Sequence record: JN600960.1
Length of the DNA: 39,646 bases
Reading direction: 5' to 3' (one strand)
Origin: Enterobacteria phage IME10
Below are positions 4,957-22,096 of the stretch, in pieces; positions within the stretch are counted from its first letter, which is position 1, and each line of letters opens with the position of its first letter. Under the pieces are notes generated by a model. The model saw only the letters and a list, made by a program, of their open reading frames with translations. It was not told the origin of the DNA and ran no database searches. A program made the translations under genes and the position numbers.

Positions 4957-7350
4957 ATGGCTAATTACCGTGATTTGTTAGAGCAGGCTGGCGCACGTTA
5001 CGGTGTGCCAGAAGGGTTGATGACTGCACTGGGTGCCAAGGAGTCTTCTTACAACCCTGCCGCAGTAAGCTCCGCCGGGGCTGTAGGATTGACTCAGGTC
5101 ATGCCTGGGACATGGCGTGATATGGGTTATACCGATGAGCAAATGCAAAACCCCGAATATCAGGCTGACGCTGGCGCGCGCTATCTGGCAAAGATGTACC
5201 AGCAGTTTGGTAACTGGCGTGACGCTCTTCAGGCTTATCACGACGGTCCCGGCAACGTTATGAAGGCAAAGCGTGGTGAATATACGCCAGGACCTGAAGG
5301 CCGCGGTTACGTTGATGATCGCTTTGCTCAATGGGCGGGTGACCCGGTGACAGACTCAACAGTCGAACAGCGCGCCACCTCTGCAAAGGTACATCCTCAG
5401 CAAGACCCTAACAACCCGTTTGCACAACTGGAAGCACAGTCATCCGAACAAGTATCGGCATCAGGCGTGCAGTCAGACCCAAATAATCCATTTGCTCAGA
5501 TTGAGCAGCAGGCAGCCAGTCAGCAGCCACCTCAACCCGTAAGTTCTGTCGCACCGAAACCTGTTCAGCAGCAAGGCGGAATAATGTCTGACCTTGGTAA
5601 TGGACTTGCTGAAACCGGGCGCGGCTTACTACAGGCAGGAATCAACGTAGCGAACATACCTGCTGAACTCACTGATGCTGTAACAAGCGCGGCGGCTTGG
5701 GCTGGCGGTAAACTCGGCATTGGCGATGGTACATATCAACCAGCGCCACGAGTAACAACGCAGGGATTAGAGCAGGACTTTGGCCTTCAGCAAGGCGCGC
5801 TGACTCCACAAACGACAGAGGGCAGGGTGTTTGCTGAAGCATTGCCTTACCTCACTCCTGCTGGCGTTGAGAGAGCGGCAGCACAGGCACCAACACTTGC
5901 TGGTCGAATTGCTCAGGGGGCAACTCGCCTTCTAGCAGAAAACGCAGTTGGATCACTTGCTGAAAATAGTGCGAAAGATGATGCGGAAGCACTCGCCACC
6001 GATTTAGGCGTTGGTGTGCTGGCTGGCGGTGCTATTAACGCTGCCGGACGTGGATTAGGTGCTGCTTATCGTGGCGTTCGTGGTGCTATTGCGCCAGAAG
6101 CGCAGCAGGCTATCAGATTTGCAGAGCGTGAAGGAGTTCCTCTGCACACCACAGACCTGTTACAGCCTACTTCCCGGGTCGGAAAAATGGCGCAGACTAC
6201 AGCAGAAAATATCCCTCTGGCTGGCACAAGCGGAATGAGAGCAACGCAACAGGAAGCGAGAAGCCAGTTGGTGCAGAGATTTGCTGATAAATTCGGCGAG
6301 TACGATCCGGCAGTTGTTATTGACAGCCTTAAAGCGAAAACATCAGGAATTCGTCGTGCTGCAGGGAGCCGTCTTGAGCAGGTTCAGAATGCAATGGCGG
6401 GAGTCAATATACAGCCTGCGCGAGCAATTCAGCAGATTGATACTGAGATATCTAATCTGCAGAAGCTTGGTAAGGTAGCTGATAACGAGACAATTTCAAA
6501 ACTTCAGTCATATCGTGATGAGCTTGTTCGCAATGCTGGCCCTGATGGTCCGGTAAATCTGGATTTGAAGCAATTAAGCGACCTGCGCAGCCAGTTCAGA
6601 ATGGACGTGAAGGGTGAGCGACCAGTGTTACCAAACCGTTCCGATGCCGCCATTCAGCGCGTTTACAAGGCAATGACTGACGATATCAATGGTGCCATTG
6701 GTCAGAATCTTGGCAACGATACTCTCCGTAAATATCAGCAGGCCAATGCCGTCTATGCTGACGAAGCGGCGAAACTAAAGAATACCAGGCTGAAGAATGT
6801 TCTCATGAAAGGCGACCTGACGCCGGAAGTTGTCAACAACATGCTATTCAGCAAGAACAAATCGGAAATTAAGACGCTGTATAACTCAGTTGGTCGCGTT
6901 GGCAGGGCGCAAATGCGCAATGGCATCATTGGAAAGGCGATGGAGAAATCAGGTGGTTCCCCTGACCAGTTCCTTCGGCAGCTTAATATTCTGCAAAACC
7001 AGACTGGCATCACATTTAAGGGGCAGGACGCTGCTTATCTGAAAGGATTAAAAAACTACCTGCAATCCACGCAGCAGGCAGCAAAAGCGGCAGTAACAAC
7101 ACCAACAGGGCAGCAAACCATCCCGTTTATTATCGGGTATGGGACGGCAATGAACCCGGCGACAACTGGCGCAGCAGTAAGCTACGGACTTCTTACTCGC
7201 GCCTATGAGAGCGAGCCATTCAGAAATGCAATGCTCCGAATGGCAAACACCCCACGCGGTTCAACAGCGTTTGAGAAAGCCATGCAGCAGGCACAAAAGG
7301 CAATTAACGCTATGACGCAGGGGGCTAAGTCTGATGCGTTGTCAGAATAG
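4957..7350 (+). CDS. Ejection protein gp16-like with N-terminal soluble lytic transglycosylase domain
   Basis: 797 aa; N-terminus has SLT-like motifs (GAKESSYNPAAVSSAGAVGLTQVMPGTW); position of P22 gene 16 but longer than my recollection of P22 gp16. Confidence 0.75.
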   Translation: MANYRDLLEQAGARYGVPEGLMTALGAKESSYNPAAVSSAGAVGLTQVMPGTWRDMGYTDEQMQNPEYQADAGARYLAKMYQQFGNWRDALQAYHDGPGNVMKAKRGEYTPGPEGRGYVDDRFAQWAGDPVTDSTVEQRATSAKVHPQQDPNNPFAQLEAQSSEQVSASGVQSDPNNPFAQIEQQAASQQPPQPVSSVAPKPVQQQGGIMSDLGNGLAETGRGLLQAGINVANIPAELTDAVTSAAAWAGGKLGIGDGTYQPAPRVTTQGLEQDFGLQQGALTPQTTEGRVFAEALPYLTPAGVERAAAQAPTLAGRIAQGATRLLAENAVGSLAENSAKDDAEALATDLGVGVLAGGAINAAGRGLGAAYRGVRGAIAPEAQQAIRFAEREGVPLHTTDLLQPTSRVGKMAQTTAENIPLAGTSGMRATQQEARSQLVQRFADKFGEYDPAVVIDSLKAKTSGIRRAAGSRLEQVQNAMAGVNIQPARAIQQIDTEISNLQKLGKVADNETISKLQSYRDELVRNAGPDGPVNLDLKQLSDLRSQFRMDVKGERPVLPNRSDAAIQRVYKAMTDDINGAIGQNLGNDTLRKYQQANAVYADEAAKLKNTRLKNVLMKGDLTPEVVNNMLFSKNKSEIKTLYNSVGRVGRAQMRNGIIGKAMEKSGGSPDQFLRQLNILQNQTGITFKGQDAAYLKGLKNYLQSTQQAAKAAVTTPTGQQTIPFIIGYGTAMNPATTGAAVSYGLLTRAYESEPFRNAMLRMANTPRGSTAFEKAMQQAQKAINAMTQGAKSDALSE

Positions 7351-7439
7351 CTTTTCAAACACCAGGAACGTGCAAAAACCAAATATGTAGAACGCAATAT
7401 TCAGCATATCTCTTTGCATAAATCCTCCGTAACTGATGG

Positions 7440-7733
7440 TTAGCTACTGTCTTTTTTATATAGCTTCTTGAGCGTATCAAAGACAATTTTCTTAACCATA
7501 TCAGATTGTTGTTCTGCCATACGCTCTGCATCGTCAATGTAAACTGATGCAGAGCTTTGTTTATCCAATGATTCTTCAATCGCTGCAATTATCTCTGAGT
7601 TCAGCGACCTGTTATTCATCTTCGCGCGCTGTTTAATTTTCGCGTGGAGTTCATGCGGAAGTCTCAAGTGAAACTGCGCCTCGTCGTATTTGCTGTACAT
7701 CCTTGATGCCTCACCAGTTGGGTGGAATGGCAT
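7440..7733 (-). CDS. mnt: Mnt-like ribbon-helix-helix repressor
   Basis: 97 aa; C-terminal DAERMAEQQSDMVKKIVFDTLKKLYKK resembles P22 Mnt as I recall it; Arc/MetJ-type N-terminal region; lies between gene 16 and the tailspike as in P22 immI. Confidence 0.7.
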   Translation of the reverse strand: MPFHPTGEASRMYSKYDEAQFHLRLPHELHAKIKQRAKMNNRSLNSEIIAAIEESLDKQSSASVYIDDAERMAEQQSDMVKKIVFDTLKKLYKKDSS

Positions 7734-7773
7734 CGTAACCTACTGGATAAATACTCAATAGTACCATTTCGGT

Positions 7774-7796
7774 ATGCAATCACATCATGATTGCAT
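7774..7796. promoter_or_regulatory. Candidate Mnt operator: perfect 9-bp inverted repeat ATGCAATCA-N5-TGATTGCAT
   Basis: Palindrome read directly in the mnt-tailspike intergenic region, about 25 bp upstream of the tailspike start. Confidence 0.4.
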
Positions 7797-7821
7797 CATA
7801 TCATTCGTCTGGAGCAATGAA

Positions 7822-9642
7822 ATGTCAGATATCACCGCAAATGTTGTGGTAAGCATGCCTTCGCAACTATTCACTATGGCGCGTTCTTTTAAAGCCGTAG
7901 CCAATGGAAAAATTTATATCGGTAAAATTGACACTGACCCGGTAAATCCTGAAAACCAGATTCAGGTTTATGTGGAAAACGAAGACGGTTCTCACGTTCC
8001 TGTTGCACAGCCAATCATCATTAACGCTGCTGGTTACCCTGTATATAATGGACAGATTGCCAAATTCGTAACTGTGCAAGGCCATTCGATGGCTGTATAC
8101 GATGCGTATGGTGTGCAGCAGTTTTATTACCCGAATGTGCTGAAGTATGACCCTGATCAGTTGGAGCAACGATTGTCTTCACCTGGTGGCGCAGTGTATA
8201 TAGGTGGCGTTGGTGGTGGAAATTTATCCCAAATAATAAATGCGGTATCTCCAGAACAGTTCGGAGCAGTAGGAGACGGATTCACTGATGATATTGAAGC
8301 TCTCGATGCTTGCATGGCTTTTGCGAGAGAAAAACCATTAGACATTATATTTAGTAAGACATACGCAATTTCACGTCCTTATGTTATTTACATGGGAAAT
8401 AAAAAAAATCCTCGCCATATTGGTCAAGGGTCCATGGCGAAAATAATATTAACCACAACAACAAAATCTGGATTGGGTAGTGACTCATACGGTACTGATT
8501 TGAATGTAAACGCAGCTGTTATTGTAGCCGCGATCACAGGTACAGGGCATAACCAACAACCCCAGAACTTTCGGTGGGAAAACATTGACCTTGACACCAC
8601 TGTAGATGCAGATTACGGCATGTACACGTCAAAAATGCAGTCCGCGGCAGTCAGTAATTTCAGGACGTATAATTTCAAGACAGGTATTCAGGATAACGGT
8701 TCCTGGAATACGTTGTATGAAAACATTAAGATGTCTGCCCACTCCACCGTAGGTTTCCGTAAAAATGCTGGTACTAGTACTACTATCCGTAACTGTTACG
8801 TAGAGAAATCGAAAGTTGGTTATCGTGTTTACAGCGGATACTCTCAGATTGAAGGGTGTGCATGCGACACTAGCACTGATGTCTCGTATTGGATTGAAGG
8901 TAACCCAGTAGCTTTAAGTAGTGACAGCACGTTTTCTCTTGTGTCATGTGGCGCAGAGAATTCAGGGACGGCCGTGGTACGAATTACTGGGACACTAACA
9001 GCAAGTATTATCAACTTTCAATCATTTAATTGGTCACAACAGCAAGACCCGACACCAGATTGTTTCTTAGATATTCAGTCCAACACTGCTAGCATTTCAG
9101 TTGAAGAGGTCAGATATCTTGGTGTTGCTCGCAGGATAAAAGACACTGGAACAAACAACACAGTTATCATAAGAAATATGACGACTCGTGGTACAGATGT
9201 TAGAGATCAGGATACCTATCCAAATAGCACTAGAATTATTGAGCTTAATCATAACGGTGTGCGAGTAGCGACAGGTTACGATAAAAATGGGATTTTGATC
9301 ACTGAAGATAATATGACCGATTCAATCGGAAGTACTACATGGTCAAGGCTATTTAACAAACAAAAAATTTGGCGCTATAGGGGTATAGTAACAAGAACAA
9401 GCGGTCAGAGTTACGGAAGGTTACAGATCAATATTCCGTTCACTATGGCTGATAATAGTTATAGCGTTGCTATTACACCAGAAGTGTATCACACCGATAT
9501 GGCAACATATGGTTACCAATGTTCAGTAGGCCCAACTGATAAAACAACAACATCATTCTTCATCAACGTAAACTCTGGAACAGGTAACACGTCATGGAAC
9601 AGTATAGCTGTTGACGTAATTGTGATGGGGCTTTCTATCTAA
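7822..9642 (+). CDS. Tailspike protein: P22-type N-terminal head-binding domain plus a different beta-helix receptor-binding domain
   Basis: Start [11 protein letters not shown] with GGAG RBS 7 nt upstream; first ~115 aa closely resemble the P22 gp9 N-terminus as recalled; remainder differs and contains the [11 protein letters not shown] motif typical of pectate-lyase-like beta-helix depolymerases. Confidence 0.85.
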
Positions 9643-9886: not shown

Positions 9887-11353
9887 ATGAGAAATATGAA
9901 ATTACTCTCAAAAAGACTAGTGGTAATTGTATGTTCTGTATTTATCCTTTCAATTATATTGTGCATACATTTAAGAAAGGGAAACTTTAACCTCAATAAT
10001 ATAAGTAGCGTACAAAATGCTAATGACATATCAACAACCAATAGTATATTGAATGATGATTTAGTGTTTTCCGAAAGATATGATTCCCTTTTTTATTACT
10101 TCGTGCATTCGTTTGTTAAATATTCTTCAGATGATTATGCTCTTGTTAATTATCCTGGGATGCTATCGACGAGTGGGAATAAGACAAACCAAGTTGAGGG
10201 TACGGCAAGGACGCTACCATTAATTGCTGCATGGGTTTATTCTGGAAGAGATTCAACCATTATCGTTAATGGTAATAAGTTAAATATAGTAGATCTGATT
10301 AGGAGTAGTATATTGTCTGGAACTAATCCAAGTTCTGTAAACTATTGGGGGGATATACATGATTATGATCAGAGAATTTTAGAGGCCGCAGATATAGTAA
10401 GAGTCTTATGGCTTACAAAAAAAGAGATATGGAATCACTTAAAAGATAATGAAAAAAATCAGATAGCTTTGTGGCTGGAGCAAGCTGCATCGGCGAAAAC
10501 TGTAAAAAACAATTGGCTACTAGCTCCATTCATAATTCAGAATTTTTTGCAGGATAATGGATATACAGTTAAGGTTAATTACAAAAATTACACAGACTTT
10601 AAGAAAAACTATCTTGAACACGGATGGTTTAGAGATGGAAATGATGGAGAAGTAGATTTCTATAATACTTGGGGTATATCCTATGACTTATTCTGGATAT
10701 CACTTATTACAGATTATGATAATGCTTTTATACTAAAAACACTATCTGAGTCGGCTGATTTCACTTCACATTTAATATCTAAAAATGGCATCCCGCTTGT
10801 TGGTAGAAGTATTTGCTACAGGACTGCAGCACCCACACCTGTTCTAATTGAAGGTCTATTAAAAAATGATGGATATCATCAAGGTTTAGCAAAATCAGCA
10901 TTAGACTATACGTGGAAATATTTTGCAAGCCACAATGCATTAGTATCAGATACATTATCAATGGGGTATTTTAATAATGACAAGCGCTTTGTTGATAATT
11001 ATAGCGGGTCAGGAAGTTGCCTGTGGGGAATAAGGTCGTTAGTTGTCGCTTATATGAATGATAAAAAATCATATATCTGGAATGGGAAATATGAGAGATT
11101 GCCTATTGATAATTCTGATTTCATTATCAATGCAGATAAACTTGGTTGGATAGTTGAGGGTAATAAAGATAGTGGAGAGATAAGGGTTATTATACCTGCA
11201 AACGAAAAAAACTCACCAAAGATAAATGATACCAATAAACTTAAAGAAGTTATATGGAGAGTTCTTGGTAAAGCAGGAAGAACTAATCAACATGACATTG
11301 AGTACCTAAAGCCATATTACTCATCACTAGAGCCTATATCTGACGTTGAGTGA
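9887..11353 (+). CDS. AT-rich cargo gene: membrane-anchored protein of unknown function (N-terminal TM helix, ~450 aa extracytoplasmic domain)
   Basis: 488 aa ORF with visibly lower GC than flanks; hydrophobic N-terminal segment LVVIVCSVFILSIILCI; sits between tailspike and attP/int, the classical lysogenic-conversion slot of P22-like phages. Confidence 0.6.
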   Translation: MRNMKLLSKRLVVIVCSVFILSIILCIHLRKGNFNLNNISSVQNANDISTTNSILNDDLVFSERYDSLFYYFVHSFVKYSSDDYALVNYPGMLSTSGNKTNQVEGTARTLPLIAAWVYSGRDSTIIVNGNKLNIVDLIRSSILSGTNPSSVNYWGDIHDYDQRILEAADIVRVLWLTKKEIWNHLKDNEKNQIALWLEQAASAKTVKNNWLLAPFIIQNFLQDNGYTVKVNYKNYTDFKKNYLEHGWFRDGNDGEVDFYNTWGISYDLFWISLITDYDNAFILKTLSESADFTSHLISKNGIPLVGRSICYRTAAPTPVLIEGLLKNDGYHQGLAKSALDYTWKYFASHNALVSDTLSMGYFNNDKRFVDNYSGSGSCLWGIRSLVVAYMNDKKSYIWNGKYERLPIDNSDFIINADKLGWIVEGNKDSGEIRVIIPANEKNSPKINDTNKLKEVIWRVLGKAGRTNQHDIEYLKPYYSSLEPISDVE

Positions 11354-11388: not shown

Positions 11389-11409
11389 AAGGTGGCATTA
11401 TGCCACCTT
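11389..11409. terminator. Bidirectional intrinsic terminator hairpin between the convergent cargo gene and int
   Basis: Perfect inverted repeat AAGGTGGCA-TTA-TGCCACCTT followed by TT; overlaps the int stop codon. Confidence 0.5.
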
Positions 11410-21199: not shown

Positions 21200-21245
21200 C
21201 TGCCAACCTGTTCCGTTTGGCTACCAGCGTCCTGCTGATGGCTTA

Positions 21246-21274
21246 AATTTAAGATCTCTTTAATTAATGGTCAA
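21246..21274 (-). promoter_or_regulatory. PL promoter with overlapping OL operator
   Basis: Minus strand TTGACC, 17-nt spacer, TAAATT; operator-like ATTTAAGATCTCTTTAAT overlaps it. Confidence 0.5.
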
Positions 21275-21342
21275 GAGTATTTTTGAAGAAAACTTAAATT
21301 TTCTTTCGTAACTTAAGTTTGGCTTTGATTTTTAAAGGAAAT

Positions 21343-22016: not shown

Positions 22017-22020
22017 AGTT

Positions 22021-22082
22021 AAGACATCTTAAATAAACTTGACTTAAGATTCCTTTAGTGGATAATTTAAGTGTTCTTTAAT
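22021..22082. promoter_or_regulatory. OR operator region (OR1-OR3) with PR (-35 TTGACT 22039-22044, -10 GATAAT 22061-22066) and divergent PRM
   Basis: P22-type operator ATTTAAGTGTTCTTTAAT at 22065-22082 plus two related copies upstream; promoter hexamers with 16-nt spacing. Confidence 0.7.
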
Positions 22083-22096
22083 TTCGGAGCGAGTCT

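Follow-up and report, generated by a model that had tools for sequence, protein, structure and literature searches.

A lone Mnt-family gene between the ejection gene and the tailspike gene

In JN600960.1, a minus-strand gene of the Mnt family sits between a gene-16-like ejection gene and the tailspike gene. (By the window, we mean the whole 39.6-kb stretch of DNA that was analyzed.) The features of this locus, from left to right, are:

4957-7350, plus strand: gene-16-like DNA ejection protein, 797 aa, with an N-terminal lytic transglycosylase domain (Pfam SLT, 2.9e-25)
7351-7431: spacer, part of the gene-16 module, containing the left mosaic joint (~7420-7432)
7440-7700, minus strand: mnt, with its probable start, encoding an 86-aa Mnt-family repressor (Pfam PF11423 and PF03869; PDB 1MNT and 1QEY; pN/pS 0.24)
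7701-7733, minus strand: probable 5' leader of mnt, with Shine-Dalgarno GGTGAGG at 7715-7709
7732-7758, minus strand: predicted promoter Pmnt, with -35 TTGAGT at 7758-7753 and -10 TACGAT at 7737-7732 (positional homology to Pmnt of P22)
7760-7776: predicted Mnt operator AGTACCATTTCGGTATG, with core GTACC-N5-GGTAT = GTACCATTTCGGTAT at 7761-7775 (homology and co-variation)
7774-7796: inverted repeat ATGCAATCA-CATCA-TGATTGCAT, with perfect arms at 7774-7782 and 7788-7796 and a 5-nt spacer
7811-9642, plus strand: tailspike gene, with Shine-Dalgarno GGAG at 7811-7814, ATG at 7822, and stop at 9642

In E. coli genomes, the counterparts of the gene at 4957-7350 are labelled by PGAP as "P22-gp16 family phage DNA ejection protein" or "DNA transfer protein." The N terminus of the tailspike is a P22-type head-binding domain (Pfam Head_binding, 1.7e-66). 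The interval between the ejection genes and the tailspike gene of P22-like prophages is variable; it has been named the "ant moron" (Villafane et al. 2008, PMC2629481), and this is where the mnt cassette sits. The late operon's last gene ahead of the moron is the one at 4957-7350. The first-pass annotation of this DNA gave a span of 7355-7821, which is the entire intergenic interval; mnt proper most likely occupies 7440-7700. The ATG of mnt (7700) and the ATG of the tailspike gene (7822) are 121 bp apart.

The Mnt protein and its start codon

The longer open reading frame at 7440-7733 (minus strand, 97 aa) matches both Pfam Repressor_Mnt (PF11423, 8.7e-15) and Arc (PF03869, 1.1e-14). The Arc match covers residues 18-60 of the 97-aa frame, so the N-terminal ribbon-helix-helix domain is present. 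Among protein structures, there are matches to the N-terminal domain of P22 Mnt (1MNT, 7.5e-19) and to Arc (1ARQ, 1e-3). The C-terminal coiled-coil tetramerisation helix is recognizable as well (PDB 1QEY, 4.4e-8, with DAERMAEQQSDMVKKIVFDTLKKLYKK aligned to DAERLADEQSELVKKMVFDTLKDLYKK). The protein is 49% identical to P22 Mnt. It is a mosaic of domains: the N-terminal domain is like those of VSe13 and JEP4, and the C-terminal helix is like those of P22, SE1, and Gally.

The true start of mnt is probably the ATG at 7700, which gives a protein of 86 aa. PGAP, the VSe13 record, and the JEP4 record all begin the gene at the equivalent ATG. We also considered the ATG at 7733-7731, which gives the 97-aa protein, and rejected it. 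An alignment of 12 Mnt upstream regions contains an invariant TA..AT hexamer followed by G, and in P22 this is the annotated -10 of Pmnt, TATCAT(G). The hexamer in the window is TACGAT (7737-7732), and its final bases supply the ATG at 7733, so the upstream start would overlap the -10. Furthermore, in SE1 and L the equivalent stretch runs into a stop codon. Because of the overlap with the -10, the stop codon in SE1 and L, and the starts in PGAP, VSe13, and JEP4, the 97-aa frame, and with it the annotation of Sf101, is probably over-extended.

The other immI genes are absent

We compared Mnt, Ant, Arc, SieA, and orf59a of P22, as well as other ant-moron proteins (encoded by JEP4, VSe13, Gally, L, and epsilon34), to the whole window with tblastn. 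Of these, Mnt alone matched (7e-25). For Arc, Ant, SieA, orf59a, and the other moron proteins, there was nothing better than E = 0.1. For antirepressors specifically (P22 Ant, Rha and KilA of JEP4, and the "antirepressor" of VSe13), there was nothing better than E = 2 anywhere in the window, and the best hit for P22 Arc had E = 10. Scans of the early-region open reading frames with Pfam and PHROGs found no Ant-like family, and no Rfam family, including the sar RNA, matched at E ≤ 1 within 7000-8300. Compared to a complete immI region (mnt-arc-sar-ant), then, ant, arc, and sar were all unmatched.

The locus had been described as a minimal immI region with a lone divergent Mnt homologue, and the Pfam and PDB matches, along with the lack of tblastn hits to arc, ant, and sieA, bear this out. 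Re-annotation by tblastn of the whole window turned up no cryptic ant, arc, sieA, Rha, or KilA.

A candidate operator next to Pmnt

The operator of mnt is probably the site at 7760-7776, which is conserved beside the gene, and not the 9-bp inverted repeat at 7774-7796. We place it there because this site is conserved with the gene, lies at the position of Omnt in P22, and co-varies with the recognition residues of Mnt. Binding by Mnt is what we infer from this conservation.

The element that travels with mnt is CATACCGAAATGGTACT followed by ATTGAG, and its plus-strand equivalent is 7760-7776. At the same position in P22, one base from the -35 of Pmnt (TTGAGA), is the annotated Mnt operator, AGGTCCACCGTGGACCT. 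The candidate operator is also one base from the -35 of its Pmnt, exactly as for Omnt of P22. RTACC-N5-GGTAY occurs just once in the whole window, with 0.02 occurrences expected. In 194 of the 208 loci that we fetched, there is exactly one copy of the related motif RTACC-NAAAN-GGTAY, and no fetched locus has a second copy. The distance from the motif to mnt is fixed (across the loci fetched by homology to Mnt, in which the offset is readable). A further copy of TACC-N5-GGTA elsewhere in the window could have pointed to a distant target, but our search found none.

The candidate operator is retained with three other types of tailspike leader and in other genera. Its versions include ATACCTAAATGGTAC in Escherichia sp. 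L200, GTACCAAAATGGTAC in Buttiauxella (which is fully symmetric), and ATACCTAAACGGTAC in Serratia; the flanks of the site have otherwise diverged in these three. In the window, the half-sites are only partly symmetric (TACCGA versus TACCAT).

Across four classes of Mnt, the half-sites at the Omnt position co-vary with the residues of the N-terminal beta-strand:

RDDPHFNFRMP (P22, epsilon34, Pluralibacter): GGTCCAC-C-GTGGACC
RDDPQFNLRLP (SE1, L, Gally): AGACCAC-N-GTGGTCT
RDDPQFNFRMP (Phlomobacter): ATATCAC-C-GTGATAT
DEAQFHLRLP (the window and its class): TACC-N5-GGTA

In Pectobacterium, which belongs to the RDDPHFNFRMP class, the left half is GAGTCCAC. Our operator call comes from homology and from this co-variation, which spans only four classes.

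The inverted repeat at 7774-7796

The perfect 9-bp inverted repeat that the first-pass annotation reported between mnt and the tailspike start is indeed there, and it is unique: the window has no second copy. When the 88-nt intergenic segment is shuffled, 0.6% of the shuffles contain a perfect 9-bp repeat whose loop is 12 nt or shorter (P = 0.006). In the whole window, there are 8 such repeats, as compared to 2.2 expected.

Of 179 relatives with the window's leader, 13 have the window's perfect repeat; another 159 have ATGCAATCA...TGGTTGCAT and the other 7 have ATGCAACCA...TGGTTGCAT. In terms of the bases at 7780 and 7790, T/G is found in 159 loci, T/A in 13, C/G in 7, and C/A in none. In other words, 159 of the 179 relatives have one mismatch in the repeat at the DNA level (G instead of A at 7790). 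The repeat also straddles a mosaic joint at about 7779. In about 10 loci from IMG/VR whose Mnt is at least 95% identical to the window's, the sequence past ~7779 has been swapped for other leaders, mostly of the P22 type, and the repeat is absent. Given these swaps, the repeat straddles a recombination joint and belongs mostly to the tailspike leader.

The repeat had been proposed to be the operator of Mnt, or it could be a second operator, with bound Mnt gating the tailspike. The repeat adjoins mnt and lies 26 nt upstream of the ATG of the tailspike gene, and a perfect repeat is unlikely to arise by chance in an 88-nt spacer. However, we consider this proposal very improbable. As DNA, the repeat is imperfect in most relatives, and it is missing from loci that combine a nearly identical Mnt (≥95%) with another leader. 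It is also missing from VSe13, JEP4, Buttiauxella, and Serratia, despite their having the same recognition residues. Furthermore, the joint runs through it, and its half-site is unrelated to TACC/GGTA or to any class of Omnt.

Another idea, which we view as possible but doubtful, is that the tailspike-sense late mRNA folds into a small stem-loop at the repeat, in its leader. The stem-loop would act on mRNA stability, processing, or read-through without involving Mnt. All three of the states seen at 7780/7790 (U.G, U-A, and C-G) pair in plus-strand RNA, and the state that would not pair (C/A) was never seen. All five transitions in the stem preserve pairing and two transversions break it, but about 56% of transitions would preserve pairing by chance, which gives P ~ 0.05 (by a hand count). 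Pairing is maintained at 97.7%, versus 96.1% in shuffles (9 of 500 were as high; 19 distinct sequences), and the covariation score is 0.098, versus 0.076 in shuffles (24 of 500 were as high); but the sequences being compared are very closely related, which makes for weak covariation. Escherichia sp. L200 has one compensatory change, from a G-C to a U-A pair, but it has lost the two inner pairs. The z-score for folding is only -1.07 (-1.53 in a second fold). With no U-tract behind it, the stem is not a terminator.

For the same reason, and because the terminator scan was negative, we rejected the repeat as an intrinsic terminator. We also rejected it as an operator for C2 or Cro: the immC operators of this prophage are of the P22 type (for instance, ATTTAAGTGTTCTTTAAT) and are unrelated to the repeat. 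Since the repeat is unusual for an 88-nt spacer and shows a weak tendency for variation to preserve pairing, it may have some other function. A small leader hairpin and a chance product of the mosaic joint are equally possible.

Promoters and read-through

Pmnt of P22 is annotated as TTGAGA-17-TATCAT (BK000583). In the predicted Pmnt of the window, the spacer is 15 nt, versus 17 nt in VSe13, JEP4, Buttiauxella, and Serratia. A 15-nt spacer is poor for sigma-70, so Pmnt is possibly weak, or perhaps mnt is transcribed from elsewhere. The operator and the -10 are conserved across genera.

In this region, a scan for consensus promoters reported just a leftward CTGACA-17-AATGAT (7828-7800), which is one candidate for such an alternative promoter. 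We did not rely on it: a 9/12 match is at the chance level (2 were found and 1.7 were expected), and it is specific to the window's leader. In the rightward direction, we found no promoter that is conserved across the window's Mnt class, and the hexamers of P22's Pant have no conserved counterpart. The best rightward candidate by eye was ATGGCA-17-AATACT (7727-7755, 8/12); since VSe13, JEP4, and Buttiauxella do not share it, we rejected it.

The terminator scan did not predict any intrinsic terminator between gene 16 and the tailspike gene, including in the spacer at 7351-7431. The minus-strand fold of 7351-7445 has an energy of -22.8 kcal/mol and z = -1.9, which is not decisive; across the leader and this spacer, z-scores ranged from -0.7 to -1.9 and were not significant. 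Given no conserved promoter and no terminator, the tailspike gene is most simply reached by read-through from the late operon, antisense to mnt, as in P22.

Distribution of the cassette

Among 5,426 complete E. coli genomes, the full 601-bp query matched in at least 139. A 146-bp core around the intergenic region matched in at least 328, and 226 of these matched over its full length; these 226 have the same cassette and leader as the window. At least 219 relatives were found in IMG/VR.

The matches also reveal where the mosaic joints are. About 100 E. coli genomes match 7690-7779 only, which puts the right joint at ~7779. On the left, the match to Gally and 720R6 stops at 7420, and that to Sf101 begins at 7432. 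With these joints (~7432 and ~7779), its confirmed position as an insert, and a cassette shared by Sf101, VSe13, JEP4, HS-1, and others, the locus has the properties of an ant moron, which is defined as a variable insert of non-morphogenetic genes that has sequence in common with other morons.

An mnt gene that faces the tailspike gene without arc or ant is found in phages L/ST64T, ST104, SE1, VSe13, Gally, and JEP4, and in a prophage of E. coli HS. Mnt classes that are just 48–65% identical to the window's Mnt also face the tailspike gene, which implies that this arrangement is old and has been kept. The layout is common and has already been published; the window has its barest form, with mnt alone. 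In particular, ST64T, ST104, and Para1 were reported to have nothing but mnt and a single unknown gene (Villafane et al. 2008, PMC2629481). Whether such mnt genes are remnants or have a new role is also a question that is already in print, worded much like the first-pass annotation (Villafane et al. 2008, PMC2629481; Zaworski et al. 2020, doi 10.1101/2020.10.05.325894).

Proposed roles for the orphan Mnt

mnt is intact and under purifying selection. Across 58 haplotypes that are over 90% identical to the window's gene, pN/pS is 0.24 (34 segregating changes of each kind, on 49 synonymous and 209 nonsynonymous sites), and 188 of 193 copies encode 84–88 aa.

We propose that the interval contains a complete and portable mnt cassette of about 350 bp (~7432-7779), comprising operator, promoter, and gene. 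In the lysogen, the 86-aa protein would be made from Pmnt. A tetramer of Mnt would bind GTACC-N5-GGTAT at 7760-7776, abutting the -35, and would thereby control how much Mnt is made, in the manner of P22 Mnt at Omnt. There would be no local antirepressor circuit, because Pant of P22 has no conserved counterpart in the window's Mnt class. The tailspike gene would be reached by read-through from the late operon, antisense to mnt. In the lysogen, the bound tetramer and leftward transcription from Pmnt would damp rightward transcription into the tailspike gene and the low-GC conversion gene downstream of it. The inverted repeat at 7774-7796 would be a small RNA hairpin at most. We give this overall explanation, cassette and mechanism together, a probability of roughly 0.6. 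For the role of the orphan Mnt, autoregulation along with damping of rightward transcription is our best guess, which we hold with modest confidence.

The first-pass annotation had also raised the idea that the gene is left over from the decay of immI. If so, then mnt would be a functionless remnant. arc, ant, sar, and sieA are all gone, the spacer of Pmnt is 2 nt short in the window's allele, and there are genuine remnants in this group, in HK620 and in Citrobacter L203. However, decay looks different in those two: for instance, the L203 copy has a premature stop codon and its GGTA is mutated to AGTA. The low pN/pS, the full-length state of nearly all copies, and the retention of the operator and the -10 across genera all argue against decay, and so does the age of the arrangement, since the Mnt classes that are 48–65% identical face the tailspike gene in the same way. 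We conclude that a functionless remnant is highly unlikely. Alternatively, the orphan Mnt might act in trans as an immunity factor, by silencing the antirepressor promoters of superinfecting or co-resident phages that have the same type of operator, which would prevent induction of the prophage. This is the established role of the Mnt that is made by a P22 prophage. It would account for purifying selection on mnt despite there being no local target, and the prophage does have immC operators of the P22 type and a C2-like repressor, which is the kind that Ant inactivates. But the members of the QFHLRL and QFNLRL classes that we examined all face the tailspike gene or another gene that is not arc or ant, and never arc or ant. 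The Ant-like genes of HS-1 and JEP4 are on the other side of mnt, beside a divergent gene for an HTH repressor, and there is no second copy of the operator in the fetched loci. So, immunity in trans seems improbable to us.

A more far-reaching reading is that the tailspike-facing Mnt proteins (QFHLRL and QFNLRL) are an old lineage with no history of controlling an antirepressor. Their dedicated function would be to regulate transcription across the boundary between the late operon and the tailspike gene, with the leader hairpin at 7774-7796 as a second element that acts at the RNA level. This is speculative, and we think it is rather unlikely to be correct in full. If it is, then a roadblock or convergent transcription, for example, could shut off or tune the expression of the tailspike gene and of the O-antigen-modification gene downstream during lysogeny, and regulation of this boundary would be a function of Mnt distinct from the textbook immI circuit.

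Our analysis corrects a mis-annotation that has been propagated ("partition protein ATPase," with the 97-aa start), and it replaces the palindrome with a better-supported operator candidate that is 13 bp away from it. It also shows that purifying selection acts on orphan mnt genes, which fall into at least four classes of operator specificity. This sharpens the question that was raised for phage L, namely what role Mnt has where an antirepressor is missing. The locus is of little importance to genome biology in general: its layout is common and published, and it is nearly identical to that of Sf101.

Comparison with known systems

One close relative is Shigella phage Sf101 (gp13-gp14-gp15, NC_027398), which has the identical gene order and is 98% identical in nucleotide sequence over mnt, the intergenic region, and the start of the tailspike gene. 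The Sf101 annotation calls mnt a "partition protein ATPase" or "chromosome segregation ATPase" and starts it at the longer 97-codon frame. The Sf101 paper does not mention mnt anywhere. HK620 has the same variable locus in another P22-like phage of E. coli, but all that is left of mnt and ant between genes 16 and 9 of HK620 is terminator remnants. The interval also contains hkcB and hkcC, and there is no intact mnt.

In ST64T, ST104, L, and SE1, as in the window, mnt is directly divergent from the tailspike gene, and arc and ant are absent. However, these phages have one or two additional small genes between gene 16 and mnt (orf62 in L; orf64 and orf65 in SE1), while in the window mnt is alone. 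The Mnt proteins of these four phages are 48–57% identical to the window's and belong to the class RDDPQFNLRLP with AGACCAC-N-GTGGTCT. Their tailspike leader is of the P22 type and lacks the window's inverted repeat.

The immI region of P22 is similar to the window in its position between genes 16 and 9, in its leftward mnt, in the two domains of Mnt, and in the geometry of the operator, -35, and -10. Unlike P22, the window lacks arc, ant, sar, sieA, and orf59a, as well as conserved hexamers for Pant. The predicted operator also differs, with TACC-N5-GGTA instead of GGTCCAC-C-GTGGACC. The work of Knight and Sauer is said to have established that Arg2, His6, Asn8, and Arg10 set the specificity of P22 Mnt. 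In the window's Mnt, the first three of these are replaced by Tyr, Gln, and His, respectively, and Arg10 is kept.

The partition protein ATPase is a Mnt repressor

The gene between the ejection gene and the tailspike gene (mnt; 7440-7700, minus strand) is misnamed in public records. In Shigella phage Sf101 (NC_027398), its counterpart gp14 is labelled either a "partition protein ATPase" or a "chromosome segregation ATPase." These records take the 97-codon open reading frame; PHROG 795 bears the identical naming. The gene so labelled, both in the window and in Sf101, is an Mnt repressor. The 11 additional codons of the longer reading frame (7701-7733) overlap the -10 element of the predicted mnt promoter, Pmnt.

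The window's Mnt is a mosaic of domains. The N-terminal DNA-binding domain is similar to the VSe13/JEP4 class, and the C-terminal tetramerisation helix resembles the P22/SE1/Gally class. Because the two domains match different classes, the sequence comparison implies recombination inside this 86-codon gene. The promoter also varies: the predicted Pmnt spacer (7738-7752) is 15 nucleotides, versus 17 in the sister classes, with GGTTACG in the window's allele where the sister classes have GGTTTTACG. The allele with the 15-nucleotide predicted spacer is very common.

In a locus from Citrobacter sp. (NZ_JADABY010000031), mnt has an early stop at codon 5 (MYSK*) and the predicted operator is mutated as well (GGTA → AGTA). 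Here, the gene and its predicted site have decayed together.

A possible hotspot for arc-ant loss, and prophage immunity

P22 has a direct repeat, GGCTACGGTGAATTTT, whose copies (1094-1109 and 1205-1220 of the fetched locus, L004) bracket the stretch that separates the ant terminator from the gene 9 leader. Because the junction between Omnt and the leader in the mnt-only phages falls near this repeat, its position suggests that GGCTACGGTGAATTTT may be a recombination hotspot for the loss of arc-ant.

In immC, a 216-amino-acid repressor (HTH plus S24) is flanked by P22-type C2 operators (21240-21320 and 22017-22090; for example, AGTTAAGACATCTTAAAT and ATTTAAGTGTTCTTTAAT). Therefore, the prophage's primary immunity is P22-like, yet no antirepressor was found in the window.

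Inverted repeats and the region between tailspike and integrase

Perfect inverted repeats of at least 9 bp with short loops are in excess in the window, with 8 (a count that takes in overlapping extensions) versus 2.2 expected from shuffles. Four of them, besides the one at 11389-11409 listed below, are:

11105-11131, perfect inverted repeat, short loop
20381-20408, perfect inverted repeat, short loop
23354-23377, perfect inverted repeat, short loop
31898-31917, perfect inverted repeat, short loop

Between the tailspike and integrase genes lie:

9887-11353, DUF2264 protein, 488 amino acids (DUF2264 match, 3e-63)
11389-11409, inverted repeat AAGGTGGCATTATGCCACCTT (9-10 bp, perfect), flanked by the DUF2264 gene and the end of the integrase gene

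The inverted repeat at 11389-11409 may serve as a terminator, or it may be a site associated with att. The DUF2264 gene is within an island of 31–37% GC, with the tailspike on one side and the integrase on the other. In P22-like phages, O-antigen-modifying conversion genes occupy this slot. Where the window has the DUF2264 gene, Sf101 instead has an O-acetyltransferase.
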